From Coriobacteriia bacterium (GTDB lineage Bacteria > Actinomycetota > Coriobacteriia > Coriobacteriales > Eggerthellaceae): a stretch of 46,715 bases of DNA. Where the stretch lies: assembly GCA_030526775.1 (NCBI GenBank), contig JAUNCA010000001.1, positions 13,384 through 60,098 on the forward strand, given 5' to 3'. Under the pieces are notes generated by a model that did not search any database, was not told the origin of the DNA, and saw only the letters and a program-made list of their open reading frames with translations. Numbering within the stretch: the stretch's first letter is position 1; every line of letters starts with the position of its first letter. Positions 24,258-41,898 of this stretch are shown piece by piece. Position numbers and translations under genes: made by a program.

Positions 24258-24446
24258 GGGAGCTCCTTTCCACGCGACAACCCCCGTCCTTGTATTGGGT
24301 ATATTGTACGCGCGAACCCTTCTATGCCGCGTGTCGAAGACACGGGCCGTTTTCCGAAATGTGGGATATTCGTCGGATAGAACAGGAGTATGGTGCGTAT
24401 AAAGGGGTACAAATCTAGATTCCAATGGTATGAGGGGAGGCAGTGC

Positions 24447-24689
24447 GTGGAGGAGCGAGAGCTCGATAAGACGCTGGAACAGCTGTTTCAGCAAGATCTT
24501 TCGGCGGGAACCGAAGAATTCCGTGACGAGCTGCTTGCCCGCTGCCTTGCAGTGCTGGATGCCGAGAATGGCGTCGGCGAAATCGATGACGGCCTTCTTG
24601 GCATGCTCACCGCGGCGGGCGATGTGTATAGCGCCCAAGCCGAGGCAGACAGTTCGGTGAAACTCCAAGGTCGGGGTCCGCGGGCATAA
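24447..24689 (+). CDS. 80-aa precursor-like peptide with a GG-type leader motif ending Ala-Ala
   Basis: GAGGGGAGGcagtgc precedes the GTG. ...GVGEIDDGLLGMLTAA|GDVYSAQAEADSSVKLQGRGPRA aligns position by position with LDDESLEQVAGG and LTDEQLDSITGG of the other two peptides. It has its own terminator. Confidence 0.5.
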   Translation: MEERELDKTLEQLFQQDLSAGTEEFRDELLARCLAVLDAENGVGEIDDGLLGMLTAAGDVYSAQAEADSSVKLQGRGPRA

Positions 24690-24741
24690 GGCCCGAAATC
24701 TAATAAATCCAGCAGGTTTCAGAACCTAACAAACCTTCTAA

Positions 24742-24768
24742 GACGGCCCCGCAAGGACCGTCATTTTG
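24742..24768 (+). terminator. intrinsic terminator or attenuator after the precursor-like ORF
   Basis: GACGGCC-ccgcaa-GGaCCGTC followed by ATTTTGTATAATTTT. A perfect TATAAT (24769-24774) overlaps the U-tract. Confidence 0.5.
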
Positions 24769-24871
24769 TATAATTTTCCTTTAACGAAGACCGCTTCGGT
24801 TAGGAAACGCTACGGGCGAAAAGAAGAAATACCGCGAAATCAGCATCTTCCAGCGTGGCAACGGCGAAGAG

Positions 24872-25360
24872 ATGCGCGAGCGCGAGTTCGAACGGCTCTA
24901 CCTGCAGAGCTATGGAACCGTGTATGGTTTCGTGCGCGCCCGCATGGCCTCCGATGCCGATGCGGAGGACGTTGTATCCGAGGCGTTTATAAAAGCGGCC
25001 CGTTCGTTTGCATCGTTCAATCCAAGCCGGGCAAAATTCGGTACCTGGGTTACCGCCATCGCAAAGAACTGCATGATCAGCCACTTCCGGCGCGACCGCC
25101 CAACCACCCCTATAGACGAGGTCTCCGAGAGGGCGTTTGCAGTATCGGGTGGGCAGGAGGCTGTCGACAATCGTGAGCTCGTGAAGCAGCTGCTTGCATG
25201 CCTAGATGACAACGAGCGCATGTTCGTCGCCATGAAATACCGCGACGGCATGAGAAACGTCGACATCGCGGCCGAACTGGGCATGAACCCTTCGACGGTT
25301 GCGACGGTGCTTGCAGGTGCCCGTACGAAGATGCGTGCCAAGTTGGAAGGCAGTAGGTAA
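24872..25360 (+). CDS. ECF-type sigma-70 family RNA polymerase sigma factor
   Basis: 162 aa. Region 2 (DAEDVVSEAFIKA...FGTWVTAIAKNCMISHFRR) and region 4 (NERMFVAMKYRDGMRNVDIAAELGMNPSTVATVLAGARTKMR). Confidence 0.85.
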   Translation: MREREFERLYLQSYGTVYGFVRARMASDADAEDVVSEAFIKAARSFASFNPSRAKFGTWVTAIAKNCMISHFRRDRPTTPIDEVSERAFAVSGGQEAVDNRELVKQLLACLDDNERMFVAMKYRDGMRNVDIAAELGMNPSTVATVLAGARTKMRAKLEGSR

Positions 25361-25361
25361 C

Positions 25362-25868
25362 ATGGCAGATACCACGAGCTCCATTTTCAACAAGAAGGCG
25401 ACCGAAAAACTGCGGAGCCCCGACGACCTCGATAAATACGTACGCGTGACGAACCCCAGCGTCTGGGTGGTGTTCGGGGCATGCGTGGCGTTGCTGGTGG
25501 GTCTTTTGGCTTGGGGCATTTTCGGGTCTGTTGCCACCAGCGTGTCGACCACGGGAGCCTGCGTCGACGACAAGGCCATATGCTTCCTTACCGCCGAGGA
25601 GTCCACGAAGGTGAAGGAAGGCGACGCTGCGAACGTCGACGGCGAGCGGATGACGGTTGTCCGCATAGAGCCGACGCCCGTCTCGGTTGACGAGGCCCAT
25701 GCCATTTTGGGTAGCGACTACTTAGTGAGCGCGCTCGTCAAGGAGAATTGGGGTTATCAGGTTACCTTCGAGGGTGACACCTCCGGCCTTGCAGCCGGCG
25801 TGCCCCTTGCCGTGAATATCACGACCGAGCGCATCGCGCCGATCAGCCTGATTCTGGGGAGCCGGTAA
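25362..25868 (+). CDS. short HlyD-like bacteriocin-secretion adaptor (NHLM/NHLP-system type)
   Basis: FNKKATEKLRSPDDLDKYVRVTNPSVWVV followed by one TM helix resembles the N-terminus of NHLM-type HlyD proteins. 168 aa. The start is 2 nt after the sigma stop. Confidence 0.55.
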   Translation: MADTTSSIFNKKATEKLRSPDDLDKYVRVTNPSVWVVFGACVALLVGLLAWGIFGSVATSVSTTGACVDDKAICFLTAEESTKVKEGDAANVDGERMTVVRIEPTPVSVDEAHAILGSDYLVSALVKENWGYQVTFEGDTSGLAAGVPLAVNITTERIAPISLILGSR

Positions 25869-25916
25869 TGAGGAACTTGGCCCTTTCCCCCAAACATATG
25901 AACGGGGAGTTGCGCC

Positions 25917-28076
25917 ATGCCTAGCAAAGTGGCGAAAGTCCCGCAGGTCATGCAGATGGAGGCGCTGGAATGCGGTGCCGCCTGCCTGACGATGATCCTG
26001 GCCTATTACGGTCGCTGGGTGCCGCTCGAGCAAGTGCGCGCCGATTGCGGCGTGTCGCGCGACGGCAGCAAGGCGTCGAATGTGCTGAAGGCGGCACGCA
26101 GCTATGGCCTGAAGGCGAAAGGCATGACGTTTTCGACCGAGGCGCTGCGCAAGAAGGGAACCTTCCCCTGCATCATATTCTGGAACTTCAACCATTTCGT
26201 CGTGCTCGACGGCTTCAAGGGCAACAACGCCTATATCAACGACCCCGCGTGCGGCCAGGTGAAAGTTCCCATCGAGGAATTCGACAAGAGCTTCACCGGC
26301 ATCGTGCTGGTGTTCGAGAAGACCGATGCCTTCGAAGAGGGCGGCCAGAAGCCCGATACCATGAGGTTCGCCCGCGCCCGCCTCGAGGGTTTGGGCGCCG
26401 CCATCGCATTCGTCATGCTTACGGCTGCTATCACCTCGGTCGTCGCGATACTGAACACCTCCCTCGGGCAGGTGTTCATGGACCGCATCCTCACCGGTAA
26501 TAATCCCGAATGGCTCGTGCCGCTTACCGTGGTGATGCTCGTGCTCGCGGGGATAACCGGCATTGTTTCCATCTTGAACGCCGTGTACCTCATGCGCATA
26601 CAGGGCAAGATCGCGGTGGTATCTTCCTCGCGGTTCATGCGGCATCTGCTGCATCTGCCCGTGGGGTTCTACGCCCAGCGCATGGTGGGCGACCTGCAGC
26701 AGCGGCAGTCCGCCAACGAGAACATCGCGTTTTCGCTCATCGGCCAACTCGCCCCGGTTCTCGTGAACATCGTGACGCTCGTGCTGTACCTGGCCATCAT
26801 GCTCAACTACAGCGTGCTGCTTACCGCCGTGGGCTTGCTCACCGTGGTGATGAATGCGTTCATCGCGCGCTACATCTCGAAAAAGCGCGTGAATATCGCG
26901 CGCGCGGGCGCCATGAACGCGGGCAAGCTGTACGCGACCACCGTCGGCGGCGTCCAGATGATCGAGACCATCAAGGCCGCCGGCGCCGAGAACGGGTATT
27001 TCGCCCGGTGGGCTGGATACCAGGCGGCGGTGAACGAATCGGTGGCCCGCTCGACGCGGCTGAACACCTATCTGGGTATGCTGCCGACGCTCCTCGTTCA
27101 GCTTGCGAACATCTTGGTGCTGGTGTTGGGCATCTGGCTCATCATCGAGGGCGCGTTCACGCCGGGCATGCTGCTTGCCTTCACCGGATTCCTCGCGTCG
27201 TTCATGGCGCCCATCCAGCAGATAATCAACTTGGGCCAGACGGTGCAAGAGATGCAGACGCAGATGGAGCGCGTGGAAGACGTGCTCCGCTACCCCGTGG
27301 ATGTCCCTGAAGAGCCCGAAGAGCCGGTTTCGGTGGACGAACTCGACCGTGAGAAGCTGCGTGGCGAAGTGGACCTCAAGGGAGTCTCCTTCGGCTACTC
27401 GCCGCTTGAGCCGCCGCTCATCCAAGATTTCGACTTGCATCTGGACCCCGGGCAGTGGGTCGCGCTTGTCGGCGGTTCGGGCTGCGGCAAGTCCACCATT
27501 GCCAAGCTCGTGAGCGGGCTGTGCGAGCCCTGGTCGGGCGAGGTGAGCTTCGACGGCACGCCGATAAAGGAAGTTCCCCGCGCGGTATTGCGCGGTTCGC
27601 TCGCCGTCGTGGACCAGGATATCGTGACCTTCGACGACACCGTGTCCGACAACGTGAAGCTGTGGGACCGCTCCATCGAAGACTACGAGGTTATCCTGGC
27701 CTGCCGCGATGCGGATATCCACGACGTCGTGGCAGCGCGTGAGGGCGGTTATTCCAGCCGCATCCTGCCCGGTGGCCGCAACTTCAGCGGCGGGCAGCTT
27801 CAGCGCCTGGAGATAGCGCGCGTTTTGGCGCAAGATCCTACGATCATCATCCTGGACGAGGCGACCAGCGCGCTCGATGCCCAGACGGAGGCCGAGGTGA
27901 TACGGCGCATCCGCGATCGCGGCATAACCTGCATCGTGGTGGCGCATCGACTCTCGACCATACGCGACTGCGACGAGATCGTGGTGCTCGACGACGGCAA
28001 GGTCGTGGAGCGCGGCACGCACGCGGAATTGCTGGCCAAAGACGGCGCATACGCGGAGTTGGTGCGCAATGACTAA
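25917..28076 (+). CDS. C39-peptidase-domain ABC exporter (bacteriocin/NHLP-type, peptidase/permease/ATPase)
   Basis: N-terminal QMEALECGAACLTMILAYYG (catalytic Cys), NHFVVLDG (His), INDPA. 6-TM domain. Walker A GGSGCGKST, signature FSGGQLQRLEIARVL. Confidence 0.9.
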   Translation: MPSKVAKVPQVMQMEALECGAACLTMILAYYGRWVPLEQVRADCGVSRDGSKASNVLKAARSYGLKAKGMTFSTEALRKKGTFPCIIFWNFNHFVVLDGFKGNNAYINDPACGQVKVPIEEFDKSFTGIVLVFEKTDAFEEGGQKPDTMRFARARLEGLGAAIAFVMLTAAITSVVAILNTSLGQVFMDRILTGNNPEWLVPLTVVMLVLAGITGIVSILNAVYLMRIQGKIAVVSSSRFMRHLLHLPVGFYAQRMVGDLQQRQSANENIAFSLIGQLAPVLVNIVTLVLYLAIMLNYSVLLTAVGLLTVVMNAFIARYISKKRVNIARAGAMNAGKLYATTVGGVQMIETIKAAGAENGYFARWAGYQAAVNESVARSTRLNTYLGMLPTLLVQLANILVLVLGIWLIIEGAFTPGMLLAFTGFLASFMAPIQQIINLGQTVQEMQTQMERVEDVLRYPVDVPEEPEEPVSVDELDREKLRGEVDLKGVSFGYSPLEPPLIQDFDLHLDPGQWVALVGGSGCGKSTIAKLVSGLCEPWSGEVSFDGTPIKEVPRAVLRGSLAVVDQDIVTFDDTVSDNVKLWDRSIEDYEVILACRDADIHDVVAAREGGYSSRILPGGRNFSGGQLQRLEIARVLAQDPTIIILDEATSALDAQTEAEVIRRIRDRGITCIVVAHRLSTIRDCDEIVVLDDGKVVERGTHAELLAKDGAYAELVRND

Positions 28077-28097
28077 GACGACGAGGCGGGTGCGCTC

Positions 28098-30287
28098 ATG
28101 AGGTGGATGGAGTCGCAAATCGAGACCCGCGCGAAGTTCGATGCAGAGGCAACCGAGCGGGCGTATGCCGAGCTTGCGAGCAGCGTAAGCGACCCCCGTC
28201 GTGCCCCGGCGTTCACGGTAGACGACATCGAGCAGGCGGATGGCGCTGCGAAGGCGTGCCTAAAGTACGTCGGCGTGGAGTCGGGGTCGGTCCCCGAAGG
28301 CATTACGGATATCGAAGACCGCCTTGACTGGCTGTGCCGTCCCACTGGCACGATGCGGCGCAACGTGCGCCTGGAGAAAGGCTGGCAGTCGCAGGCCTTC
28401 GGCGCGATGCTCGGGCACCTTACCACCGGCGAAGCGGTGGCCATCCTGCCGCGGAGCGTGCGGGGCTACTACTACCTGGAGCCCGGCAGCGGCCGCAAGG
28501 TGAATATAACGCCCGAGGTGGCAAAACGCATCGACGAGGATGCCGTGCTGTTCTACAAGCCGCTGCCTGCGAAATCCCTGAAAATCCGCGACCTCGTGGC
28601 CTTCATCTTCCGCGTGTTCGACCGGAGCGATTACCTGCTGGTGTTGGCGGCGGCCCTTGCCGTAGTGCTCATCGGCCTTGCGCCCGCATGGGCGAACGAG
28701 GTCGCCTTCGGCGTGGTGGCCCCCTCCGGGCAGGCGGCGCTCATTCTGCCGATCGCCGCATTGTTGCTTGGCGTTACGGTGGCTTCGGCGCTCATAAGCG
28801 CATGCCGCACCTTGGTGATGGCTCGCGTGTCCACGAAGCTCGATGTGGTTACCGAGGCCGCCACCTTTGCGCGCGTGCTGGCGCTGCCGACCTCGTTCTT
28901 CAAGCAGTATTCGGCGGGCGATTTGGGAAGCCGCGTCTCGAATGTGACGGCGCTTGCCCAGAAAATCGCATCGATTCTCTTGGGTTCGGGACTTTCCGCA
29001 CTCTTGTCGCTTGTCTACATCGTGCAGATTGGCGCATACGCGCCTTCGCTTGCGCTTCCGGCATTGGCTATCGTCATCGCGCAGGCGGCACTCACGTTGG
29101 TGGTTACGCTCATCACCATCCGCTACGAGCGGGTGTCCATGCAGGAGTTCTCGAAGCTTTCCGGTACGGTGACGGCGCTTTTGTCCGGCATCCAGAAAAT
29201 CAAGCTTGCCGGCGCCGAGGACCGCGCGTTCGCGAAATGGGCCCATGGGTACGCCGAGTATGCGCGCCCGACGTACAACCGGCCGGCGCTTATCCGCGCG
29301 CTGCCCGCCATCGTGGCGCTCGTCGGGCTCTTGGGCGCCATCGCCATCTACTTCCTCGCGGGCACGACGGGTGTTTCCGTGGCGAACTACATGGCGTTCA
29401 ACGCAGCGTATGGCCAGGTGACCGCCGCCATCATGGCAATCGCGGGCATCGCGGGCGAAATCGCGCAGATCGACCCCATGCTCGACATGGTCGCTCCCAT
29501 CCTGGAGGCGACCCCCGAGACCGCCGAGGAGAAACCGAGCGTGGAGTCGCTCAGCGGTGCTATCGAGGTATCGGGCTTGGCGTTCCGTTACAACGAGAAT
29601 AGCCCGTACGTGCTGCAGGACATCTCCTTCAAGGTGCGTCCCGGTGAATACGTGGCGCTCGTGGGCAAGAGCGGCTGCGGCAAGTCGACCATCATGCGCC
29701 TGCTCCTGGGCTTCGAGACCCCCGAGCGCGGTTCGATTTTCTACGACTCGCATGATGTCCAGAAGACGGACCTGCGCAGCCTGCGCCAGCATATCGGCGT
29801 GGTCATGCAGGATGGCGGCCTGTTCATGGGCGATATCGCGAGCAACATCACCATCTCCACCCCGCTGGCGACGCTCGACGAAGCGTGGGAGGCGGCCGAA
29901 ATCGCGGGCATCGCCGACGACATCCGCAAGATGCCGATGGGCATGCAGACCTTGGTGACCGAAGGCGGTGGCGGCGTTTCAGGCGGCCAGCGTCAGCGCC
30001 TGATGATCGCCCGCGCCGTATGCGGCAAACGCCGTATCCTCATGCTGGACGAGGCCACGAGCGCGCTCGACAACAAGACACAGAAGTACGTGAGCGATTC
30101 GCTCGACTCGCTGAAGTGCACGCGCATCGTCATCGCCCATCGCCTTTCGACCGTGCGCCATTGCGACCGCATCCTAGTGGTGGACCAGGGCGTCATCGCC
30201 GAAGAGGGCACGTACGAGGAGCTTATCGAAAAAGGCGGCATCTTCGCCGAGCTGGTGGAGCGCCAGCGCCTGGACAAGGAGGGGTAG
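28098..30287 (+). CDS. second ABC exporter subunit (permease/ATPase) with a non-peptidase N-terminal domain
   Basis: About 150-aa N-terminal domain without a catalytic Cys motif. TM domain. Walker A GKSGCGKST, signature VSGGQRQRLMIARAV. Resembles the ABC2 partner of NHLM systems. Confidence 0.85.
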   Translation: MRWMESQIETRAKFDAEATERAYAELASSVSDPRRAPAFTVDDIEQADGAAKACLKYVGVESGSVPEGITDIEDRLDWLCRPTGTMRRNVRLEKGWQSQAFGAMLGHLTTGEAVAILPRSVRGYYYLEPGSGRKVNITPEVAKRIDEDAVLFYKPLPAKSLKIRDLVAFIFRVFDRSDYLLVLAAALAVVLIGLAPAWANEVAFGVVAPSGQAALILPIAALLLGVTVASALISACRTLVMARVSTKLDVVTEAATFARVLALPTSFFKQYSAGDLGSRVSNVTALAQKIASILLGSGLSALLSLVYIVQIGAYAPSLALPALAIVIAQAALTLVVTLITIRYERVSMQEFSKLSGTVTALLSGIQKIKLAGAEDRAFAKWAHGYAEYARPTYNRPALIRALPAIVALVGLLGAIAIYFLAGTTGVSVANYMAFNAAYGQVTAAIMAIAGIAGEIAQIDPMLDMVAPILEATPETAEEKPSVESLSGAIEVSGLAFRYNENSPYVLQDISFKVRPGEYVALVGKSGCGKSTIMRLLLGFETPERGSIFYDSHDVQKTDLRSLRQHIGVVMQDGGLFMGDIASNITISTPLATLDEAWEAAEIAGIADDIRKMPMGMQTLVTEGGGGVSGGQRQRLMIARAVCGKRRILMLDEATSALDNKTQKYVSDSLDSLKCTRIVIAHRLSTVRHCDRILVVDQGVIAEEGTYEELIEKGGIFAELVERQRLDKEG

Positions 30288-30291
30288 CGTC

Positions 30292-30594
30292 ATGGAGGCC
30301 CGGACGAGCATCGAAGGGAACAAGGCGACCATCGAATTGGTGGGCAAGATCACGGCTAACGCGCTTCCCGATTTAGAGGCGGCGATAGACGGCATGCCCG
30401 TTGCGATACGCGACCTGGATATCGTTCTGGCCGATGTGGATTATGTCTCGTCGGCAGGGCTTCGCGCGTTCGTGCGCGCTAGCAAGGCCATCGCGGGCCG
30501 TGGGGAAGAGTTTCGCTTGGTGCATCCCAACGATACCGTGTGGGAAGTACTCGAGATAACGGGTTTTGGCGATGTCTTCGCCGTTGTGAGATAA
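30292..30594 (+). CDS. STAS-domain anti-sigma-factor antagonist (SpoIIAA/RsbV-like)
   Basis: 100 aa. DVDYVSSAGLRAFV with the conserved phosphorylatable Ser. AAGGAGGGG precedes the ATG. Confidence 0.85.
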   Translation: MEARTSIEGNKATIELVGKITANALPDLEAAIDGMPVAIRDLDIVLADVDYVSSAGLRAFVRASKAIAGRGEEFRLVHPNDTVWEVLEITGFGDVFAVVR

Positions 30595-30616
30595 AAGCGG
30601 GCAGGAGGAGTTGAAG

Positions 30617-33406
30617 ATGCCAAAGGCCGACGTGGCCAAGAAGGAGAAGCCGAAGATACTGCTGTGGCGCGGCATGCTCGATAGCAGGAACGAGCAGCAT
30701 CGCGTGGTCATCGCCATCACGCTTGCCGTGGCGAGCGCGGTGTTTTCGTTCACGCAGCTTGGCTTTGCAAACTTCGTGCTCCCAGACGGAACGTCCGTGT
30801 ACATTGTCACGTTGTTGCAGATCGTGGCTCTGGGGTCGCTGTTATTGGGAACGGTCGCCGGCACGGCAATCGGGCTATTCGCGGGCGGCGTGCTCTATCT
30901 CCACGCCTGCGTGCTTCCGCTCGACCACTACGAGTTGACGTTCGTCACCCCCGCGTCTTCCATCCTCTTTCTCGGGCTTTCGGGGTTCTTTCTTGGCATT
31001 TTGTTCGCCTTTGCCCTGCGCAAGAATCCATCGCAGGTGAAGCGCGTTGTCTACATCACCATCGTCTGCCTCCTGGTCTCTTCGTTCTACCACTTCAATT
31101 TCATCGCGAACGCGTTCTTCTTGCTTGTGGCGGAGTTTGCCGACGTAGCCGAGTCGTCTGGAGCGCGAGCATTCCTGCTCGAGGAAACGATATCGCGGAT
31201 TTTGCGTCTCGGAGACGTCAACCTGCAGATGTGGGCCACCACGTTTCTCATGGCGGTCCTCTGCGGCATCGGCGACTACATTGCACGCCGGGTGAATGCG
31301 CACGAAGGTGCGGTGGGCATGCGCGTCGTGTTCAATGCCTGGCTTGCGATTGTGGTGACGCTCTCCTTCATGGCCATGGCGGCTGTGACCTTTGCGGTTT
31401 CCACGCAGGATGCAATTCGAGACGCCGAAGACGAAATGCGCAGCGAGGTTTCCTACCTCACCAGGCAGATTGAAGCAGCCGACAACCGGATTAATCTGTA
31501 CTCGGATGTCCTCCAAGGCGGAAACTTCGATTTCGACGCTGCAGATGAGGGGCTCATGTACGACATGAGCGACGTCCTCGAGCCGCGCAACGTGCTGAAC
31601 GGGTATACGTATGAAGGCGATGGCATCGTTCTCGTAACGGTGAAAGGTGGGGTTTACGCGAGCGATTACGATCACATTCCGGTTGGCACCGAACTCGATA
31701 AAGCGTTTGTGAACACAACGCTTCAGGCCATAGAGAAAAGCATCGAGACGGGAACCATTCAGCGTTTTGTCTTAGACGACCCTGCGGTATTGATTGCTTC
31801 CACGGAAAGCGAGGATGTGGCGGGTGTCGAGGGCTCAGAACCGCCGCGCATCGCATACCTGTATGCTGAGGAGGCCCCGAATCTCTTTAAGGGGCAAGAT
31901 GGCGAGAGCATCGACCTCGACCAGAAGGTTATCTTGATTCGAACCTCCGAGCAGGTATTTGCGGAGCGTGGCGCGGTGATGGTGTGGACGACGCTTTCGG
32001 AACTCGTATTGATGCTTGCGGTGTTCGCGCTGGTGTTCCAGCTGCTGAACAGGTTGATCGCCCGGCCCATCGACAAGACGAACGAGGCCTTGGCGCGCAT
32101 AACGGCAGGCGACCTCGAGGCGCGTGTGGACGCGCATGAAACCAGCGAGTTCGAGTCGCTTTCCGCGGGCATCAACTCTACTGTCGACACCCTGCAAGGG
32201 TGGATTGCCGAGGCGGAAAGCCGCATGGATACGGAACTCGAAACCGCCAAAGCCATTCAGGAATCGGCGCTTCCCCAGGTGTTCCCGCCGTATCCGGACA
32301 TCTTCCGGTTCGACGTCTACGCCACTATGAAGGCTGCCAAGCAGGTTGGCGGCGACTTCTACGACTTCTTCCTCATCGGTGATTCCGGACCCGATGCGGG
32401 CAAGCTCGGGTTCGTGATGGCCGATGTGTCGGGCAAGGGCGTTCCCGCGGCGCTGTTCATGATGAAGGCCAAGACGCAGATTCGCGACTATCTGGAGAAC
32501 GGCGTGGCGCTGGGCGAGGCCATCGAGAATGCGAACCGGCTGCTGTGCGACGGCAACGAAGCCGGTATGTTCGTTACCGCGTGGGTGGGCGTGCTCGATT
32601 ACGCCACGGGCCACGTGGATTACGTGAATGCCGGACACAACCCGCCGCTGCTCTGGCAGTACGACGGCGGTTGGCGCTGGCTGAAGCAGCGGTCCGGTTT
32701 ACCGTTGGGCCTGTTCGATGGCCTGCCCTACAAGACCCATTCCGTCGACTGCAAGCCGGGCGACCAGTTCCTGTTGTACACGGACGGCGTGACCGAGGCT
32801 ATGGATACGGACGACGCGCTTTACGGTGAGGACCGCCTGGAGCGACTTGTCAACGAGCATTACCTCTTGCATCCGCGCCGGCTTGTGGAGACGGTTCGTC
32901 GAGATGTTTCCGCGCATGCGCATGGCGCCGAGCAATCGGACGATATCACAATTCTGGCATTGGAGGTTGGCGTGCCGCCCGAGATAACCGCGACCCTTGT
33001 CGTTCCAGCAGATGTGGACGAGCTGCCGCGTGTAAACGAGTTCATCCACAACGAGCTCGACCGGCGCCTGTGCCCGGTGCGCGCCCAGAACCAGCTGGAC
33101 ATTGCCGTCGAAGAGCTTTTCGTCAACGTGGCGCATTACGCGTATCCGGATATGCCGGCCGAGGAGCCGGGCGAGGTGCGCGTGAGCTACACCTACAGCG
33201 CCGACCCGCCGTCGATTTGCGTGGACATTGCCGACGATGGTATCCCGTATAATCCCCTCGAGAAGCCCGATGCGGTAACCCCGGACAACATCGCCGATGT
33301 GCCGATTGGCGGCCTGGGCATACTCATGGCAAAGCGCAGCGTGGACGAAATGAGCTACAAGCGCGTGGGTTCGAGCAATGTGGTAAACATCGTGAAGAAG
33401 TGGTAA
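30617..33406 (+). CDS. membrane sensor - HAMP - PP2C (SpoIIE/RsbU-type) phosphatase - RsbW-like HATPase fusion
   Basis: About 6 N-terminal TM helices, a roughly 190-aa predicted extracytoplasmic segment, one more TM, and HAMP (ITAGDLEARV). PP2C motifs: GGDFYDF, MADVSGKGVPAALFM, YTDGVTEA, DDITILALEV. C-terminal HATPase_c_2-like boxes: EELFVNVAHY, ADDGIPYNP, GGLGILMAKRSVD. ATG at 30617 follows GGAGGAG. Confidence 0.85.
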   Translation: MPKADVAKKEKPKILLWRGMLDSRNEQHRVVIAITLAVASAVFSFTQLGFANFVLPDGTSVYIVTLLQIVALGSLLLGTVAGTAIGLFAGGVLYLHACVLPLDHYELTFVTPASSILFLGLSGFFLGILFAFALRKNPSQVKRVVYITIVCLLVSSFYHFNFIANAFFLLVAEFADVAESSGARAFLLEETISRILRLGDVNLQMWATTFLMAVLCGIGDYIARRVNAHEGAVGMRVVFNAWLAIVVTLSFMAMAAVTFAVSTQDAIRDAEDEMRSEVSYLTRQIEAADNRINLYSDVLQGGNFDFDAADEGLMYDMSDVLEPRNVLNGYTYEGDGIVLVTVKGGVYASDYDHIPVGTELDKAFVNTTLQAIEKSIETGTIQRFVLDDPAVLIASTESEDVAGVEGSEPPRIAYLYAEEAPNLFKGQDGESIDLDQKVILIRTSEQVFAERGAVMVWTTLSELVLMLAVFALVFQLLNRLIARPIDKTNEALARITAGDLEARVDAHETSEFESLSAGINSTVDTLQGWIAEAESRMDTELETAKAIQESALPQVFPPYPDIFRFDVYATMKAAKQVGGDFYDFFLIGDSGPDAGKLGFVMADVSGKGVPAALFMMKAKTQIRDYLENGVALGEAIENANRLLCDGNEAGMFVTAWVGVLDYATGHVDYVNAGHNPPLLWQYDGGWRWLKQRSGLPLGLFDGLPYKTHSVDCKPGDQFLLYTDGVTEAMDTDDALYGEDRLERLVNEHYLLHPRRLVETVRRDVSAHAHGAEQSDDITILALEVGVPPEITATLVVPADVDELPRVNEFIHNELDRRLCPVRAQNQLDIAVEELFVNVAHYAYPDMPAEEPGEVRVSYTYSADPPSICVDIADDGIPYNPLEKPDAVTPDNIADVPIGGLGILMAKRSVDEMSYKRVGSSNVVNIVKKW

Positions 33407-33478
33407 AAATTTCCATACAGCAAAAGGGGAATGGATGGCTGCTGTGTGGGGAACGAAATGGCGAGAAAGGAAGACCCA

Positions 33479-33778
33479 ATGGAGATCAGGGCAATCGACG
33501 AAGGCACGCCGTACGTGTTCGCGCTGGATGGCAGGCTCGATACGAACACCTCCCCGCAGCTGGAGACATACGCTGGCAAGCTGTACGAGAAGGGCATTGC
33601 GGACATCGTCGTTGACATGTCGAAGTGCGAGTTCGTTTCGTCGGCCGGCCTGCGCGTCATCGTCGCCATGCAGAAGCGTGCGGCAACAGGCGGATCGCTT
33701 GTTTTCCGCAGCGTTGTGCCCGAGGTCATGGACGTCTTCGAGATGACGGGCTTCAATAACATCCTTACATTCGAATAA
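33479..33778 (+). CDS. second STAS-domain anti-sigma-factor antagonist
   Basis: 99 aa. SKCEFVSSAGLRVIV. AAAGGAAGaccca precedes the ATG; the tracked ORF begins at 33431. Confidence 0.85.
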   Translation: MEIRAIDEGTPYVFALDGRLDTNTSPQLETYAGKLYEKGIADIVVDMSKCEFVSSAGLRVIVAMQKRAATGGSLVFRSVVPEVMDVFEMTGFNNILTFE

Positions 33779-33821
33779 GGTCCTTGCGTTCAAATAGCGG
33801 CTTTGTTTTTACAGGAGGGAA

Positions 33822-35219: not shown

Positions 35220-35274
35220 TGAAGGGAAAGCCCTTCTTGTGACCGATCGTTAGCTTGTGGAAGGAAGAGCCGAC

Positions 35275-36495
35275 GTGGATAACTCGATGGTCAAATACTT
35301 CAAGGCAATCGGCGCCGTTCAAAGCGTTATCTCCAACGCGACAACGCTGGATGAGGCGCTGCAGGGCGGCCTGAAGGCCATCGTCGAGAATGCGGGGGCC
35401 GATAGCGGCGTTATCTGGTACGCCGACAAGGCTGGCGACGGGAAGCTTCACCCGTATTTCTGGATTGGCCCGGTGGACCTTACCCGGAGGTCGCATGCGC
35501 TGGGCGACGGCGCGGTGGGCCGCGTCTTCGAATCGCAGAAAACCGAGCGCCTGTACGAGTTCCGCGCCGACCAAGATGTCGAGACCGCCATCGACTTCAT
35601 GGGCATGCCCGTGAAGTCGATGGTGTGCGTGCCGTTTTCGAACAACGCCGAGGATTTGGGCGTCATCCAGTTCGTGAACGGCATGGAAAGCGAGTGCTTC
35701 AACGACGAGACCGCCGACGTGATGGAGATCATGGCCATGATGGCCGCCATCGCCATCGAGGAAAACGAAGCGCTCACCGCGCCCTGGCAGCCGGGCGAGG
35801 TCGTGATGGAGCTGCGTGACATCACGCGCGAGTTCCAGAACGGCGACATCGTCACCAAGGTGCTGAAGGGCGTGAACCTCGACGTGTACGAGGGCGAGTT
35901 CCTCGTGCTGCTGGGCGAGAGCGGCTGCGGCAAATCCACGTTGCTGAATATCATCGGCGGCATGGACCAGGCCACCTCGGGCACCTTCGAATACCTGGGG
36001 AAAGACCTTTCGAACGCCACGCAGGAAGAGCTCACGGACTTCAGGCGCGACAACATCGGGTTCATCTTCCAGAGCTACAACCTTATGCCCAACCTCACGG
36101 CGGTGCAGAACCTGAAGCTCATCGCCGAGCTCGTAGCCGAGCCCATGGACGTCGATAAGGCGCTCGAAGTCGTCGGCCTTTCCGAGCGCAAGAACAACTA
36201 TCCGAGCCAGATGTCGGGCGGCCAGCAGCAGCGCGTTTCCATTGCGCGTGCCCTGGTGAAGAACCCGAAGATCATCCTGGCCGACGAACCCACCGCCGCG
36301 CTCGATTACACGACGAGCATCGAGGTGCTCCAGGTGATGGAGGAGGTCGTGAAGAGCGGCACCACCATGGTGATGGTGACTCACAACGAGGAGATCACCC
36401 GCATGGCCGACCGCGTGGTGCGCATGCGTAACGGGAAGATGCACGAGGTGACCATCAACCGGCATCCGGCGCACGCAACCGACCTGGTTTGGTAG
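35275..36495 (+). CDS. GAF-domain-fused MacB/LolD-type ABC ATP-binding protein
   Basis: An N-terminal region of about 170 aa is GAF-like ([27 protein letters not shown]...MVCVPF...LGVIQFVN). Then Walker [11 protein letters not shown]-loop, signature [15 protein letters not shown], and ILADEPT. The start (35275 GTG or 35287 ATG) is uncertain. Confidence 0.8.
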
Positions 36496-36504
36496 GGGTC
36501 GCGC

Positions 36505-39500
36505 GTGAAACCGACCCAGATAACGGAACTGCTCGCCAATATCAAGGCGACGTTCGTGTCGTTCTTCTCCATCATGATGTTCGTCGCCCTGGGGGCTGGC
36601 GTGTTCGCAGGCATCTTTTGGGTTGCCCCGGCATTGGAAACCACGGCCGACAAGGTGTTCGACGAGGGTTCCCTTCATCATTTCCAAGTGCAATTCCCCT
36701 ATGGCCTTACCGAGGACGACCTTGCGCAGTTGCGTGAAGTGGAAGGCGTGACGGACGTCGAGGAAGGCTATGCCGCATACGGTACCTATAAGGTGGATAC
36801 CGGGCAGTACACCGTGAAGGTGCAGGAGCTTGGCGAGCGCATCGACGTTCCCCGCATCGTGGAAGGCGCCCTGCCAACCAAGAAAAACGAGGTTGCCCTG
36901 AAGGCCAGTTCCGCCGAGGCGTTGAATCTGGGCGTTGGGGATAAGCTGACGTTTGAACACGATGCCTCCGACGAGTCCGACAAGGACGGGATGGAGCTCC
37001 TGCGGCGGGACACCTACAAGATAACGGGGCTTGTGGAAAGCTCGGAGTACATGGCCCTTTCAAGCCAGACCTATGGATTCTCGACTTCCTGTACGGGCGC
37101 GGTCGACGCGGTTGCCTGGGCTCCCGCCGCCGCATTCGACGCCGAAGCCTTCCAGGAAGGGTATCCGGTGGTGAACATCCGTTGCGCCTCGTTTGAGGGC
37201 GTCGGCGCGTTCACCGACGAATACGACGCGATGTCGGAGGAAGAGAAGGCGCGCATCGCCGAGCTTGGCGCAACGCTGGCGCCTGCCCGCTACGACGCCA
37301 TACACGACAAGGCGCAGCAGCAAGTCGAAGAGGGCGAGAAGAAGCTGAAAGACGCCGAGAAGAAGATTTCCGACGGCGAGAAGCAAATCGAGGACGGCGA
37401 GAAACAGCTTGAGCAGGCGCGAATCGATTTGGATGCGGCCGTGAAAGACGGCGAGGCGAAGCTTGCGGATGCCTACAACAAGCTTCAATCCGCCGAGTCC
37501 CAAAAGGCTTCGGCGCAGAAGAAGCTGAGCGCGGCCCAAGCGAAGCTGAGCAAGGCCAAAGCGGCATTGGCGATAGTCGACGAGGCAAAAGCGACGGCTC
37601 GGGCTGTTGCGAGCGAGATGAGGGCGTACAAGAAGTCTCAGGATAAGCTGCTGAAGCAGAAGAAGATCTCCCAGAATAAGTACAACGCGCGCTTGGACAA
37701 CCACGGCGCGAAGATGCGGTCGAGGATACAGCCGTACGCCAAGAAGGCCGGCGTGAGCGTGCCGAAGATCACGCATGCAAACTACAGCGAATCGATCCAG
37801 GTGATAGCATCCGTCGAGGCCAACGCCGAGAGCATACCGGTGGTGGTCGAGGGCAAGCAGATGACCATTGGGCAGGCGCGCAAGAAAGTGGCCCAGTACG
37901 AGAAGCAGTTGTCTTCTGCCCAAGCGACGTACAACAAGAAGGTGAAACAGCTGGAGAACGGCTGGGCGCAGTATTACGCCGGTCAACAGAAGCTCGAGAC
38001 CAAGAAAGCAGAAGGCGAAAAGCAGATTGCCGATGGCGAGGCCCAGCTCAAGGATGCCAAGAAACAGGTGAAGGAAGCCAAGGCCGAAGTCAAGAAGAAC
38101 AAGCCCCTCCTTGCCGCGGCGAAGGAAAAAGTCGCCGCCCTGAAGAAGTACGATTGGTCGATTGCCGATCGTGCCACAAATGGCGGCTCCATCGAAGTTT
38201 CCACCTTTGCTGGGGTTACTAACCGTCTGAGCTTCTCGATGGCGGCGCTGTTCCTTATCGTCGGTTTGCTGGTGAGCTATTCGGCCATTGGCCGCATCGT
38301 GCGCGAGCAGATTACGCAGATTGGCACGAAGAAGGCGCTCGGCCTGCGCAAACGCGAGATCACGATGAGCTTCCTGCTGTATGCCGGGCTTGCGGTTATC
38401 GTCGGCGTCCTCGTGGGCCTGGTCGTGGCGGTTTTCGCTGTCGAAGCCATCATCGGCAACACCCTTTCGGCCCGCTTCACCTTCGATGCCCTGCCGCCGT
38501 ACTTCGACATCAGGCTTGCGCTTATCGCGCTTGCCGTCGAGCTCGTGCTCGTGATGGGTGCCGCTTGGCTTTCGTGCCGCACCATACTGAAACAGCAGGC
38601 GGTCGAGCTGCTGAAGGGCGAGAAGCCGCCGGAGGGCAAGACCCGCTTCTACGAGAAGTGGGGAATCTGGCAGAAGCTGCCGCTGATGACCCAGACCATG
38701 GTGAACAATTGCATGAACGACAAGAAGCGCGTTTTCAGCACCCTTATCGGCGTCGCGGGCTGCACCGCGCTCGTTGTTACGGCCATTACCCTGAACAACG
38801 ACGTGATGAAGAGCTACGACATGCATTACGACGATGTGTACGGGTTCAACGCCATCGCCTTCGTCGATTCGGAGGTCGAGGGCTCGGCCGACGCGGTTGC
38901 CAAGTCGCTCGAGGACGATGGCTGCACGTCCGCCGTGGTTCTGCGGCGGAGCCAGGCTATCCAGCAGCCGGATGGAAGCCAGGGCGCCGTAAGGATAGTC
39001 GTCCCCGCCGATGAGCAGACGTTCCAGCAGGTGTATCACGTGAATGCGGTGGAGGGCAGCGATGTCGACCTGTCGTCGGACGGCGTGTGGATATCGCAAG
39101 CCTATGCTTCTCACCTGGGGGCGAAGGTTGGCGACGAGCTGACGATCAATGCTTCCGACGGAACGGTGCGCACCCTTACCATCGCCGGCTTCTCCGAGTT
39201 TTACCTCACCTATAACGAGTTGGTGATGGGACGCGACGCCTACGAGAAGGCTTTCGAGGCGAAGTATGTTCCCAATGCCGTGTATTCCCAGCTGGGGGAT
39301 GCATCGCTTGACGAGGTCAACGCGAAGCTCGCGGGCGTTGACGGGTATAGCCAGATTATCGACGACAAGACCAACCAGTATGGCAACTTCGCGGCCTTCT
39401 CGAAGGTGTCGCAGGCCGTGGTGCTCATCTACCTCGCGCTTGCCGTGCTGATGGCCATCGTGGTGTTGCTGAACCTGAACTTCATGTTCATCGACGAGAA

Positions 39501-39804
39501 GAAGCGCGAGCTCATCGTGCTGATGATCAACGGCTTCTCGGTGAAGGACGCGAAGAAGTACATCTACAACGACACCATCGTGCTCACCGTCCTCGGCATT
39601 ATCCTGGGCCTGGTGGTAGGCGCAATCATGGGGTCGATCACCGTCGGGACCATCGAGCCGGTGGCCGCATTCTTCTTCAAGGGAATCGACTGGACGGCTA
39701 TCCTCGTCGGCACTGCCGTGACCGCGGTTCTCTCGTTTGTCATGAGCCTCATAGCGCTACGCCGCATCCCCGCCTTCAAGCTCACGGACATCAACAAGCT
39801 GTAA
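36505..39804 (+). CDS. 1099-aa FtsX/MacB-type ABC permease with a long coiled-coil extracytoplasmic insert
   Basis: Two 4-TM FtsX-like modules (around aa 1-40 / 580-720 and 740-1099). Between them lies a K/E/A/Q-rich coiled-coil stretch of several hundred aa (EKKLKDAEKKISDGEKQIEDGEKQLEQARIDL...). Confidence 0.85.
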   Translation: MKPTQITELLANIKATFVSFFSIMMFVALGAGVFAGIFWVAPALETTADKVFDEGSLHHFQVQFPYGLTEDDLAQLREVEGVTDVEEGYAAYGTYKVDTGQYTVKVQELGERIDVPRIVEGALPTKKNEVALKASSAEALNLGVGDKLTFEHDASDESDKDGMELLRRDTYKITGLVESSEYMALSSQTYGFSTSCTGAVDAVAWAPAAAFDAEAFQEGYPVVNIRCASFEGVGAFTDEYDAMSEEEKARIAELGATLAPARYDAIHDKAQQQVEEGEKKLKDAEKKISDGEKQIEDGEKQLEQARIDLDAAVKDGEAKLADAYNKLQSAESQKASAQKKLSAAQAKLSKAKAALAIVDEAKATARAVASEMRAYKKSQDKLLKQKKISQNKYNARLDNHGAKMRSRIQPYAKKAGVSVPKITHANYSESIQVIASVEANAESIPVVVEGKQMTIGQARKKVAQYEKQLSSAQATYNKKVKQLENGWAQYYAGQQKLETKKAEGEKQIADGEAQLKDAKKQVKEAKAEVKKNKPLLAAAKEKVAALKKYDWSIADRATNGGSIEVSTFAGVTNRLSFSMAALFLIVGLLVSYSAIGRIVREQITQIGTKKALGLRKREITMSFLLYAGLAVIVGVLVGLVVAVFAVEAIIGNTLSARFTFDALPPYFDIRLALIALAVELVLVMGAAWLSCRTILKQQAVELLKGEKPPEGKTRFYEKWGIWQKLPLMTQTMVNNCMNDKKRVFSTLIGVAGCTALVVTAITLNNDVMKSYDMHYDDVYGFNAIAFVDSEVEGSADAVAKSLEDDGCTSAVVLRRSQAIQQPDGSQGAVRIVVPADEQTFQQVYHVNAVEGSDVDLSSDGVWISQAYASHLGAKVGDELTINASDGTVRTLTIAGFSEFYLTYNELVMGRDAYEKAFEAKYVPNAVYSQLGDASLDEVNAKLAGVDGYSQIIDDKTNQYGNFAAFSKVSQAVVLIYLALAVLMAIVVLLNLNFMFIDEKKRELIVLMINGFSVKDAKKYIYNDTIVLTVLGIILGLVVGAIMGSITVGTIEPVAAFFFKGIDWTAILVGTAVTAVLSFVMSLIALRRIPAFKLTDINKL

Positions 39805-39991
39805 CCGCCATGCGACGAGGCATGCGCACCAGTCGCTTGCCTCGTCGTTCAGCTCGTGGCTTTCGTCTTCCACAAGGGCTTTCCCGCCCCTCTGCAATGT
39901 GGAGAAGGCGTGCGGAAGAAAACCCTGGGATGGACCACGCCCGCCTTGCGTACCAATTGAGAAGGGGTACGCGAAGAAAGGCGGCTCAGCC

Positions 39992-40681
39992 ATGGCATAC
40001 GCGACTAATAGCAACGACACAACTTGCAGGAAAGGCCTTCTCGGCCTGCCGATAACGCCGCGGAAGGCGATTCGGTTCGAGCGTAGCCGTGTTCAGGCAG
40101 AAGCCGCCGGCTGGGCGCCGTGGAGTGTTCGCTTCTGGCGGTGCATGGGCATCTCGTTCTGCGTGTTCTCCATAGTCGGGCACTGGATGGAAATCCCGTA
40201 CTGCCTGTTCAACAAGTACTTCTTCGGCATCGTGGAGGCAGATTCGCTCGTTTTCGCCGACCCGATGTACCCGTTCTTGGTGTACGGCATTGCCGCCGTG
40301 CTGGGAGCCCTGCTCTTGGTGCCGCAGCGCGATTGGCTGAAGGACCATTATCCGCGCTGGCAGGCAACCCTGCGGTTCTTCCTGCTGTGCATGGCCGCCG
40401 CATGCGCGGGCGAGATCATCATGGGCTTGCTGCTGAACCAGCCCGACCCCATTACCGGCATCTACCCGCTGTGGGACAACTCGCACCTGCCGTTCAACGT
40501 GCTGGGACAGGCATGGCTGGTGAACGACTTCCTGCTGGGCATCATCCTCACGCTCTATACCTGGGCGCTGTATCCCGCGTTGGTGAAGCTTGTGAGCAAG
40601 GTGCCCGAGCGCTGGGGCTGGCCCGTGGCCGTCACGACGGTCGTTTCCTTCGTCGCCCTGTGCGTCGTGAAGTTTGCCTAG
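39992..40681 (+). CDS. PF06541-like membrane protein (paralogue of the C-terminal half of 33822-35219)
   Basis: FCVFSIVGHWMEIPYCLFNKY...MYPFLVYGIAAV and YTWALYPALVKLVSKVPE parallel the upstream paralogue. The start is uncertain (tracked ORF from 39899). Confidence 0.6.
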   Translation: MAYATNSNDTTCRKGLLGLPITPRKAIRFERSRVQAEAAGWAPWSVRFWRCMGISFCVFSIVGHWMEIPYCLFNKYFFGIVEADSLVFADPMYPFLVYGIAAVLGALLLVPQRDWLKDHYPRWQATLRFFLLCMAAACAGEIIMGLLLNQPDPITGIYPLWDNSHLPFNVLGQAWLVNDFLLGIILTLYTWALYPALVKLVSKVPERWGWPVAVTTVVSFVALCVVKFA

Positions 40682-40690
40682 CCCGCAAAA

Positions 40691-40760
40691 ATGATAGTTT
40701 ACCGCGGGGATGAATTATCATGCTGCTGGATGATGATTCACCGCGGGGATAAATCATCAT
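40691..40760. repeat. two adjacent copies (opposite orientation to 23104 and 41849) of the ATGAT..CCGCGG..ATCAT palindrome
   Basis: ATGATAGTTTACCGCGGGGATGAATTATCAT (40691-40721) and GATGATGATTCACCGCGGGGATAAATCATCAT (40729-40760). The second overlaps the ATG at 40759. Confidence 0.8.
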
Positions 40761-41772: not shown

Positions 41773-41848
41773 CGGAAGCCAGCGCCTGCAAATCTGACAA
41801 CGGCTGCCTGGTGGCCCTTCGCCGCAGGTACAATACGGACAAGGCTCA

Positions 41849-41879
41849 ATGATGAAAAACACCCGCGGTAAATCATCAT
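41849..41879. repeat. palindromic element ATGATGAAAAACACCCGCGGTAAATCATCAT
   Basis: Identical to the 23105-23135 copy. It lies between the broken ORF and the aminotransferase gene. Confidence 0.85.
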
Positions 41880-41898
41880 TATGGAGGAAGGGGCGCGT

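Follow-up and report, generated by a model that had tools for sequence, protein, structure and literature searches.

The 46.7-kb stretch of Coriobacteriia bacterium contig JAUNCA010000001.1 analyzed here (hereafter the window) carries a string of twelve plus-strand genes at 24447-40681, which we annotated by Pfam and NCBIfam profile searches of the open reading frames (ORFs). The nearest named homologues of the encoded proteins assign the window to Eggerthellaceae. We read the string as a composite locus for regulation and export with a Gram-positive-type NHLP/Nif11 exporter at its hub, made up of an HlyD-like stub, a C39-ABC subunit and a second ABC subunit (ABC2). An original prediction had listed the twelve genes with their domains, and these were borne out: the searches returned the C39-ABC, STAS, PP2C, RsbW-type kinase, GAF, FtsX and PF06541 domains (Table 1), and the predicted gaps of 48, 21, 4, 22, 72, 43, 55, 9 and 187 nucleotides (nt) were all reproduced. 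A single spacing was corrected, that between the sigma gene and the HlyD-like gene, which measured 1 nt instead of 2 nt. The combination had been put forward as undescribed; it is non-random, and our full-text literature searching on partner switching, anti-sigma factors or STAS proteins together with Gly-Gly or C39 exporters gave no description of it. Related loci, designated by L numbers, were fetched with flanks of at most 10 kb, and a gene called absent from such a locus is absent nearby, though not necessarily from the genome.

The small ORF at the head of the string is overlapped by a minus-strand ORF of 507 amino acids (aa) at 23145-24668. The real start of the latter is an ATG at 24257 with AAAGGAG before it, which places the small ORF in a true intergenic region. 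The weak hairpin and U-tract predicted after the small ORF are real, with the hairpin at 24742-24762. Terminator-like sites within the string were at background level, and scans of the string for sigma-70-type promoters and terminators gave nothing over background. A CGTATAA sequence at 33246 was considered as an internal promoter and rejected as a coding coincidence, as it falls in the codons of the kinase G1 box (GIPYNP).

The exporter subunits were assigned from NCBIfam models. C39-ABC scored 949.5 bits against TIGR03796 (cutoff 853.3) and has the catalytic residues Cys19 (in ECGAAC), His93 and Asp109, and ABC2 scored 704.5 bits against TIGR03797 (cutoff 709.4) with a full-length alignment over 69-723. 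The HlyD-like assignment held for the N-terminus of its protein, which matched positions 1-69 of the 421-position TIGR03794 model at 45.4 bits (cutoff 156.2); it did not hold as a full-length adaptor, the product being a 168-aa stub with a single transmembrane (TM) helix. We considered this stub as an anti-sigma factor and rejected it, as it matches the TIGR03794 N-terminus and accompanies the exporter even where no sigma gene is found. The sigma factor scored 90.5 bits against TIGR02937 (cutoff 42.9), reached no equivalog cutoff, and by Pfam has regions 2 and 4 only, in agreement with its predicted extracytoplasmic function (ECF)-like nature. It is the only sigma factor of the string, in which we found no co-encoded group-3 sigma factor with regions 2, 3 and 4.

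The switch consists of a membrane phosphatase-kinase fusion and two STAS proteins, whose genes lie on both sides of the fusion gene. The sensor half of the fusion has ~8 TM helices and an outer domain of ~200 aa between TM helices (residues 264-464, against ~190 aa predicted), followed by HAMP. In the AlphaFold2 model (predicted local distance difference test, pLDDT, 75) a long helix leads into an alpha/beta domain in this outer segment, a fold that by eye reads as Cache/PDC-like; in a per-domain comparison the outer domain was the most divergent part of the protein. Pfam matched the remainder to SpoIIE/PP2C (E = 1e-55) and HATPase_c_2 (E = 5e-22), and the best PDB match of the model in Foldseek was 3KE6, the RsbU-RsbW fusion Rv1364c of M. 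tuberculosis (E = 1e-17). Across 19 full-length clusters of homologues, 52-98% identical, the motifs GGDFYD, ADVSGKG, DGVTEA, SDD, Asn839, DxG and GGLG are invariant, that is, the PP2C Asp motifs and the N, G1 and G2 boxes of the kinase. Both STAS proteins exceed the TIGR00377 cutoff and carry the predicted serine in [YF]VSSAGLR, aligned with Ser58 of SpoIIAA and Ser56 of RsbV. As judged from these alignments, no residue required for a phosphorylation cycle is missing from the fusion or from either STAS protein. STAS1 is fast-evolving, with 42-49% identity to its orthologues in L001, L004, L085 and L088, where STAS2 retains 68-86%.

The second half of the string encodes a pump and two PF06541 membrane proteins. 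The GAF-ATPase scored 223 bits as DevA and 211 bits as MacB, both below the equivalog cutoffs. The first extracytoplasmic domain of the permease is 535 aa long with a long coiled coil at ~270-550, and the string holds no separate membrane-fusion adaptor gene for the pump. Permease and GAF-ATPase are paired in L008 with a paralogous phosphatase-kinase and a divergent STAS2-like gene. The 465-aa PF06541 gene accompanies STAS2 and the phosphatase-kinase in L087 and L088 and adjoins the phosphatase-kinase in L007; the second PF06541 protein is conserved in L001. A literature search on PF06541 returned no functional information. A third type of transporter is associated with these sensors in Coriobacteriia: in L005 (4952-9820), a paralogous phosphatase-kinase gene and a STAS2-like gene are directly preceded by the gene of a 1622-aa ABC-2-type membrane protein.

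Table 1. Positions of the annotated genes and sequence elements in the window
Feature	Position	Strand	Basis and remarks
Second motif copy, GATAGAACAG-N9-GCGAATAA	7727-7753	+	54 nt before the 7808 ORF; outside the originally predicted string
Gly-Gly precursor-like ORF	7808-8110	+	Motif scan; leader ...LKDLFDEEGMSLTDEQLDSITGG, 51-aa core
Promoter-like motif, GATAGAACAG-N9-GCGTATAA	24376-24402	+	44 nt before the small ORF
Small ORF, 80 aa	24447-24689	+	GTG start, GAGGGGAGG Shine-Dalgarno
Hairpin and U-rich tract (weak terminator), then TATAAT box upstream of sigma	24742-24777	+	-10.3 kcal/mol, z = -1.9
ECF-like sigma, 162 aa	24872-25360	+	PF04542 (Sigma70_r2), PF08281 (r4_2), TIGR02937
HlyD-like stub, 168 aa	25362-25868	+	TIGR03794 positions 1-69; TM helix 36-54
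C39 peptidase-ABC exporter subunit	25917-28076	+	TIGR03796; Walker A/B motifs
ABC2, second ABC exporter subunit without peptidase domain	28098-30287	+	TIGR03797
STAS1	30292-30594	+	PF01740, TIGR00377; Ser motif YVSSAGLR
Phosphatase-kinase fusion, 931 aa	30611/30617-33406	+	HAMP 478-529, SpoIIE/PP2C 596-786, HATPase_c_2 798-929
STAS2	33479-33778	+	Pfam, NCBIfam; start corrected from homologues and ribosome-binding site
PF06541 (CmpB-like) polytopic membrane protein, 465 aa	33822-35219	+	Pfam E = 2.9e-21
GAF + MacB/DevA/LolD-type ABC ATPase	35257/35275-36495	+	GAF_2 E = 5e-14, ABC_tran E = 1e-37
Double-FtsX/MacB_PCD permease, 1099 aa	36505-39804	+	Pfam: FtsX twice (E = 1e-22), MacB_PCD E = 1e-7
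Second PF06541 membrane protein	39899/39992-40681	+	Pfam E = 7.8e-15

The small gene and its sigma factor

The small protein and the ECF-like sigma factor form a conserved two-gene cassette, as seen from their gene neighbourhoods. In almost all loci where position could be assessed, local hidden Markov model searches and comparison of gene context showed the small gene to be the immediate upstream neighbour of the sigma gene. A 4-nt overlap of the two is found in 10 of the 13 Firmicutes-like loci (L106, L133, L138, L154, L170, L171 and L173-L176), an arrangement already seen in three of the first four such loci examined; the overlap is 1 nt in L130, and 11 nt separate the genes in L142. The spacing is ~130-230 nt in the window, L004, L096, L102 and L172, and in L102 the pair is inverted together. 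The family's adjacency to sigma and the 4-nt overlaps make the small protein the prime candidate for the sigma partner, and the claim that the sigma gene has no anti-sigma gene beside it was revised on these grounds. It is on conserved adjacency and overlap that the candidacy rests: no recognised anti-sigma domain was found in the protein encoded beside sigma, the small protein having no Pfam, NCBIfam or PDB match.

The Gly-Gly-type processing site expected of a precursor-like ORF is present in the small protein as IDDGLLGMLTAAG, between a conserved two-helix N-terminus and a 22-aa hydrophilic tail (DVYSAQAEADSSVKLQGRGPRA). Homologues in L001, L004, L096, L102 and L105 have in common the N-terminus E[FL]xxxLxxLxxxD[LF]SxGTExFRDxLLxRC and the site [LI]xDDxLxxLxAAG followed by a variable tail, and Firmicutes-like loci encode a related 60-79-aa protein (LFDYQRFExN...LSDDDxxxLNAAG) just upstream of a 160-aa ECF-like sigma gene. 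At 90% identity the family forms 583 clusters, and at 50% identity (E <= 1e-3) 1278. The members listed are 59-123 aa long, with no fusions among 150 listed, and only three of them carry a source name, in each case "hypothetical protein"; searches of the family against Pfam, NCBIfam and PDB sequences gave no match. Tails vary from 7 to ~75 aa and are hydrophilic and of low complexity, and the N-terminus and the AAG site are conserved. An 84-aa ORF upstream of STAS1 in L088, considered as a relative of the small protein, was rejected as it is not a homologue.

Firmicutes-like loci also carry separate Nif11-like Gly-Gly precursors beside the small gene, with cores of 3-50 aa, and the coexistence of the two suggests that the small protein is a distinct, single-copy, sigma-coupled class of Gly-Gly substrate. 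By eye, its pre-cleavage helix (ALSDDSLALAAGG) resembles that of the co-resident precursors in L138 (ALSDDELDHVAGG). Neither the small ORF nor the 7808 ORF of the window matched the leader models TIGR03793 and TIGR03798/PF07862; PF07862 (Nif11) genes are carried by the Eggerthellaceae locus L172, and the precursors of L171 match TIGR03798 below the cutoff. Some Nif11-like precursors have short cores of 3 to ~28 aa after the Gly-Gly site (for example LWW, FLWW, VTRSPFLWL and MTRWFGVGGLFWW; L171, 10763-11605; L154, 8234-9905; L142, 1142-1378; L174, 10380-15090), and these look more like signalling peptides than bacteriocins. A precursor of L138 (9842-10168) holds in its core two YGNGxDRVARLxxAGY repeats, which we take to resemble cell-wall-binding repeats of the CW_7 type.

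A promoter-like motif precedes the small ORF. With as many as 2 mismatches allowed, GATAGAACAG-N9-GCG[AT]ATAA has exactly two matches in the window, versus 0.00 expected, and both stand before Gly-Gly ORFs; GC[AG]T[AC]T[AT]AA occurs once in the window. Each of the six Eggerthellaceae-type loci that we compared has an [AG]GA[CT]...GCGTATAA element ~45-55 nt ahead of the small ORF, and L172 has the same motif architecture before its small gene and before a Nif11 gene. A Firmicutes motif, TTATCCC-N14-G[CT]A[TA]CTTAA, is found before small-sigma cassettes and before Gly-Gly precursors. The second match in the window precedes the 7808 ORF, which has a classical leader (...MSLTDEQLDSITGG) and no Pfam or NCBIfam match above threshold; by eye, the C-terminus of its leader resembles the Pfam-Nif11 precursor of L172. 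The 7808 ORF is a probable exporter cargo and sigma regulon member. ORF 7437-7811, which overlaps its start, was set aside as apparently spurious (Arg/Ser/Pro-rich, no Pfam match).

The simplest reading is that sigma recognises the motif promoters and that its regulon consists of its own cassette and Gly-Gly peptide genes. No further motif copies were found upstream of the switch or pump genes in the window, and these genes would be expressed by read-through or from the TATAAT-like promoter ahead of the sigma gene. TATAAT-like sequences also occur in the small-to-sigma spacers of L004, L096 and L102 and in the small-to-stub spacer of L105, and inverted repeats were seen by eye in the small-to-sigma spacers of L004 and L102.

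Several other features of these loci were recorded. In the window a Fic-domain gene (8213-9082) follows the 7808 ORF; L175 and L176 have a 78-aa Gly-Gly peptide with the Firmicutes motif and a Fic gene directly after it, and a Fic gene lies nearby in L004. The recurring pair of Gly-Gly peptide and Fic genes may belong to the regulon. In L170 (10001-10280) an intact small gene precedes a sigma gene that breaks off after ~26 codons, and no exporter lies within 10 kb; the pair looks like a decayed copy of the small-sigma cassette. Between the response regulator and sigma genes of L001 (3613-3915) are four 45-nt palindromic units (CCxCCGTGGACGG...CCGTCCACGGCGGG) at 73-84-nt spacing, which look like REP-type repeats. 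DUF7005 recurs, between ABC2 and STAS in L075 (7316-8218) and directly upstream of the cassette in L175 (306-1145) and L176 (196-1035); Peptidase_S41 and Rce1-like/CPBP genes are recurrent in L173-L176.

The switch beside the exporter and the string in relatives

Genes for STAS proteins, kinases and PP2C phosphatases are repeatedly encoded beside this exporter family, with or without the sigma gene, to judge from gene neighbourhoods in a metagenome scan anchored on the stub (80 loci, annotated by tblastn). All loci retrieved with the stub as anchor have it beside the exporter, and in Firmicutes-like loci it is only 69-75 aa long. We defined 30 distant exporter loci by a stub of <55% identity, a C39-ABC of 48-59% identity and at least 3 kb of non-exporter flank. 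A STAS, PP2C or RsbW-type kinase gene lies within 6 kb in 19 of these 30 loci, and a sigma gene in 4; with no computed baseline, we judged the former count to be far above the random-neighbour rate. Two loci without sigma in the fetched flanks have the switch and exporter in a tight co-directional string, L169 with PP2C, STAS, kinase, a 69-aa stub, C39-ABC and ABC2, and L150 with STAS, kinase, a 74-aa stub, C39-ABC and ABC2. The switch-positive loci are scattered over the exporter tree, with GC of 0.34-0.66, and the gap from ABC2 to STAS1 is 4 nt in both the window and L087. Conversely, L172, L173 and L174 have the small gene, sigma and exporter without any switch within 10 kb. From the reverse side, ~3 of 80 GTDB loci anchored on the phosphatase-kinase have the exporter; the switch family is general, yet this exporter family is strongly enriched for the switch. 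The position of the partner switch beside an exporter suggests that an ABC exporter is gated at the post-translational level.

Haft et al. (2010; PMC2887384) list Eggerthella lenta as a host of NHLP/Nif11 clusters and mention neither sigma nor STAS. Literature searching with Nif11 and ECF terms gave papers on Nif11 and on peptides made on ribosomes and modified after translation (RiPPs) only. In L075, a 238-aa SAP + DUF6434 protein ending in ...LDDKDLFLAAGG and an 18-aa tail is encoded directly upstream of the stub and exporter (1610-2326), and may be a large exporter substrate. A 981-aa methyltransferase-YcaO-LuxR(GerE) fusion is encoded at the end of the same locus, beside the kinase gene (11520-14465).

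A single-protein scan of genome contigs with the fusion protein found no relatives; an alignment-based scan found them. L001 (fusion 62% identical) is collinear with the window over the full string, sigma through second PF06541 gene, and has the same class-V aminotransferase gene after it. Identities to L001 are 42% for STAS1, 40% for the small protein, 61% each for sigma and the sensor, 82-88% for the exporter, STAS2 and most of the pump half, 68% for the FtsX permease and 71% for the second PF06541 protein. L085 (65%) and L087 (79%) keep the same order as far as their contigs reach, and L094 is collinear in part. L004 (52%) has the small ORF, sigma, stub, C39-ABC, ABC2, STAS1 and the fusion, and then ends without the pump half; L088 has STAS1, the fusion, STAS2 and two PF06541 genes, and the 578 nt of upstream sequence available there hold no exporter; in L003 and L089 only the fusion gene is present. 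With the whole string collinear in L001 and, to the ends of their contigs, in L085 and L087, but partial in L004, L088 and L008, the arrangement is modular, not obligate. The string is a unit in closer relatives, yet is assembled from separable modules; the collinearity expected by the prediction was found in those relatives, and an obligate single unit is not supported by the more distant loci.

At the borders of the string, the minus-strand gene divergent from the small ORF (23145-24257) encodes a GNAT (Acetyltransf_3) domain fused to a circularly permuted YpsA/SLOG domain. An Acetyltransf_3 gene also lies just upstream of the small ORF in L001, and a GNAT gene lies between the STAS and PP2C genes of L075. 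Downstream, ~1.2 kb (40682-41880) separate the second PF06541 gene from the class-V aminotransferase gene; this spacing is ~60 nt in L001, so the 1.2 kb in the window looks like an insertion. ORFs 40770-41204 and 41077-41574 in this segment had no Pfam or NCBIfam match.

Proposed mechanism and alternatives

We propose a mechanism that links sigma, the small protein, the exporter and the STAS switch, and as a whole we favor it tentatively, at somewhat less than even confidence. Sigma would transcribe the motif-bearing promoters of its own cassette and of the Gly-Gly peptide genes. The conserved two-helix N-terminus of the small protein would contact sigma, for which the protein would most likely be an anti-sigma factor, and the small protein would also be an exporter substrate: the C39 domain would recognise the LxDDxLxxLxAAG helix, cleave, and thread the disordered tail out. 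As both sigma partner and exporter substrate, the small protein would tie sigma activity to exporter activity, in the manner of FlgM and sigma 28. An extracytoplasmic cue would switch the membrane sensor between kinase and phosphatase and so set the phosphorylation of STAS1 and STAS2. The target of STAS1 would be the peptide exporter, and that of STAS2 the GAF-ATPase/FtsX pump together with its PF06541 partners. Sequestration of sigma by the kinase domain would have no part in this mechanism. MlaB, a STAS protein, controls the ABC transporter MlaFEDB and is a precedent for STAS as an ABC accessory. Partner switches with non-sigma outputs are known, with All4160 among the proteins acting on a non-sigma target; in Vibrio fischeri SypE-SypA, SypA acts on a non-sigma target (PMC8256260), and in P. 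aeruginosa HsbA, the STAS substrate of HsbR, binds either FlgM, a secreted anti-sigma factor, or the cyclase HsbD (PMC5085249). Extended to the family, the mechanism becomes a secretion-coupled sigma switch, in which more than 1000 small proteins would be anti-sigmas with a Gly-Gly export tag, cleaved or expelled by a peptidase-ABC exporter to free an ECF-type sigma for cargo genes, with the STAS switch, controlled from outside, gating the exporter. In this extended form it is possible, if unlikely.

A number of points weigh against the proposed mechanism. All five of its steps are drawn from gene neighbourhoods. The AlphaFold2 model of the small protein (helices 2-19, 23-39 and 48-57 and a disordered tail) has low confidence, with a pLDDT of 63, and no similarity of the small protein to known anti-sigma domains was detectable. 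In L001 a histidine kinase and a response regulator gene are inserted between the small gene and sigma, in L105 the small gene is present with no sigma between it and the stub, and in L173 and L174 an AgrC-like kinase lies near the cassette. In the window the small ORF is uncoupled translationally from sigma by a 182-nt gap with a hairpin, and in this looks more like a highly expressed precursor gene. The main Firmicutes clade retains a fairly conserved 14-aa tail ([ST]xVxDPKxDxxKR), which suggests that the tail is more than filler. As an ECF promoter the motif is unusual in geometry, and a different regulator could be the one that recognises it.

Of the alternatives, peptide autoinduction survives best. 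The small ORF would be a pheromone precursor, its exported tail would be sensed by the Cache-like domain (or by the histidine kinases of relatives), and a rise in sigma activity would lead to transcription of the precursor, in a positive feedback like that of ComCDE/PlnABCD. The Gly-Gly-type site, conserved leader and variable tail of the small ORF are consistent with a precursor, as are its own promoter and weak terminator in the window and the moderate conservation of the tail within clades; yet tails of 7 to ~75 aa that are hydrophilic, of low complexity and without Cys are unlike known Gram-positive pheromones, and the strongly conserved 35-aa N-terminal hairpin is more than C39 recognition needs. 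HPK10-type (AgrC-like) kinases classically sense exported peptides. The kinase insertion in L001 and the AgrC-like kinases in L173 and L174 favor the pheromone reading, histidine kinase and response regulator genes lying beside the small gene in L001, L170, L173 and L174 and including AgrC-like HATPase_c_5 kinases, whereas L172 has no receptor candidate within 10 kb. The divergence of the extracytoplasmic domain of the fusion protein also counts in favor of autoinduction. Against it, between the window and a close relative the tail is 73% identical and the sensor outer domain 96.5%, the pairing of these two proteins being inferred. The 4-nt overlap with the sigma gene in most Firmicutes-like loci suggests stoichiometric partners, and no modifying enzyme is encoded beside the small gene in the window, although some relatives (L049, L075) have one. 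On balance we consider autoinduction quite unlikely.

The wiring of the original prediction took the RsbW-type domain of the membrane protein for the anti-sigma factor, with dephosphorylated STAS capturing that domain and freeing sigma. HATPase_c_2 is indeed the fold that serves RsbW and SpoIIAB as anti-sigma and kinase, the genes beside sigma encode no classical anti-sigma domain, and collinearity of sigma and switch is seen in the window, L001, L004, L085 and L094, with co-occurrence in L106, L130 and L138. The distant loci argue otherwise, as most have the switch with the exporter and without this sigma, and L172, L173 and L174 show the reverse, so that switch and sigma are each linked to the exporter and not to each other. 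RsbW-type proteins contact sigma domain 3, as in the SpoIIAB-sigma F complex, and ECF-type sigmas lack it; the ECF-like sigma of the string is without region 3. The small protein is, moreover, the better candidate for the sigma partner. In the characterised fused kinase-phosphatases HsbR and SypE, output is borne by the STAS protein (PMC5085249, PMC8256260). We do not favor sequestration of sigma by the kinase domain and regard this wiring as improbable. It is very doubtful, too, that the string is a loose neighbourhood without cross-talk, in which a bacteriocin-type export unit with its own sigma lies beside an unrelated envelope-stress switch and a MacB-type resistance or immunity pump through island-like clustering of membrane functions, for although the modules are separable (L004, L088, L008, L003, L089), HAMP-PP2C-kinase and STAS pairs are very common in Clostridia without an exporter nearby and no copy of the sigma-type motif was seen upstream of the string's second half, the 19 of 30 exporter-anchored loci with switch genes, the tight switch-stub spacing in L150 and L169, the 4-nt ABC2-STAS1 gap, and the span of the association across phyla and GC contents speak against it.

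Comparison with known systems

Control of peptidase-containing ABC exporters has so far been understood almost entirely via two-component quorum systems. Our literature searching found no description of a partner-switching module repeatedly beside an exporter family, sometimes a few nt apart, nor of a large small-protein family with a Gly-Gly site associated with a downstream ECF-type sigma. An exported or cleaved sigma regulator, should the small protein prove to be one, would represent a new way to control ECF sigmas and would offer a simple handle on the production of bacteriocins or signal peptides in gut and rumen anaerobes (Eggerthellaceae, Clostridia).

The locus shares with the NHLP/Nif11 export cluster (PMC2887384) the C39-ABC, the second ABC subunit, an HlyD-type N-terminus and substrates with Gly-Gly leaders. 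It differs in that the adaptor is reduced to the stub, and in that the adjacent substrate is a sigma-coupled small protein instead of an NHLP or Nif11 peptide. The pump resembles MacB/DevCA/BceAB-type pumps in its FtsX domains, MacB periplasmic core domain and MacB/DevA-like ATPase, and is set apart by the GAF domain at the N-terminus of the ATPase, the double-FtsX fusion, the 535-aa coiled-coil outer domain, the lack of a separate adaptor and the two PF06541 proteins that flank it.

ComCDE, PlnABCD and BlpRH are three-component peptide pheromone systems with ComAB-type exporters. Common to these and the present locus are a Gly-Gly peptide gene directly upstream of regulators, a C39 exporter, and separate precursors of bacteriocin-like type whose promoter motif also stands before the regulatory operon. 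Here, an ECF-like sigma and a partner switch replace the HPK10 kinase and LytTR regulator, neither of which was found by Pfam among the ~40 longest ORFs of the window; L173 and L174 have both.

The switch has the STAS, PP2C and GHKL kinase components, with all catalytic motifs, of RsbU/V/W-sigma B and SpoIIE/AA/AB-sigma F; it differs from them in lacking a group-3 sigma, in the tethering of the kinase to a membrane sensor and in the association with exporters. Closer in architecture are Rv1364c (3KE6), HsbR-HsbA-FlgM and SypE-SypA, in which a phosphatase followed by a Ser kinase on one chain acts with an adjacent STAS protein bearing a conserved Ser. In contrast to their receiver or PAS inputs, the input here comes through a polytopic membrane domain, with HAMP and a Cache-like outer domain, there are two STAS substrates, and ABC exporters and an ECF-like sigma are the partners in the genome.

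In the FlgM-sigma 28 checkpoint, a small, partly disordered anti-sigma factor leaves the cell via the export machine whose client genes the sigma factor controls. FlgM is the anti-sigma factor of that system (PMC5085249). Under the proposed mechanism, an anti-sigma factor would likewise be removed by the export machine that serves the client genes of its sigma, a likeness that is entirely inferred; the machine here would be a peptidase-containing ABC transporter in place of flagellar type III export, and cleavage at the Gly-Gly-type site would occur.

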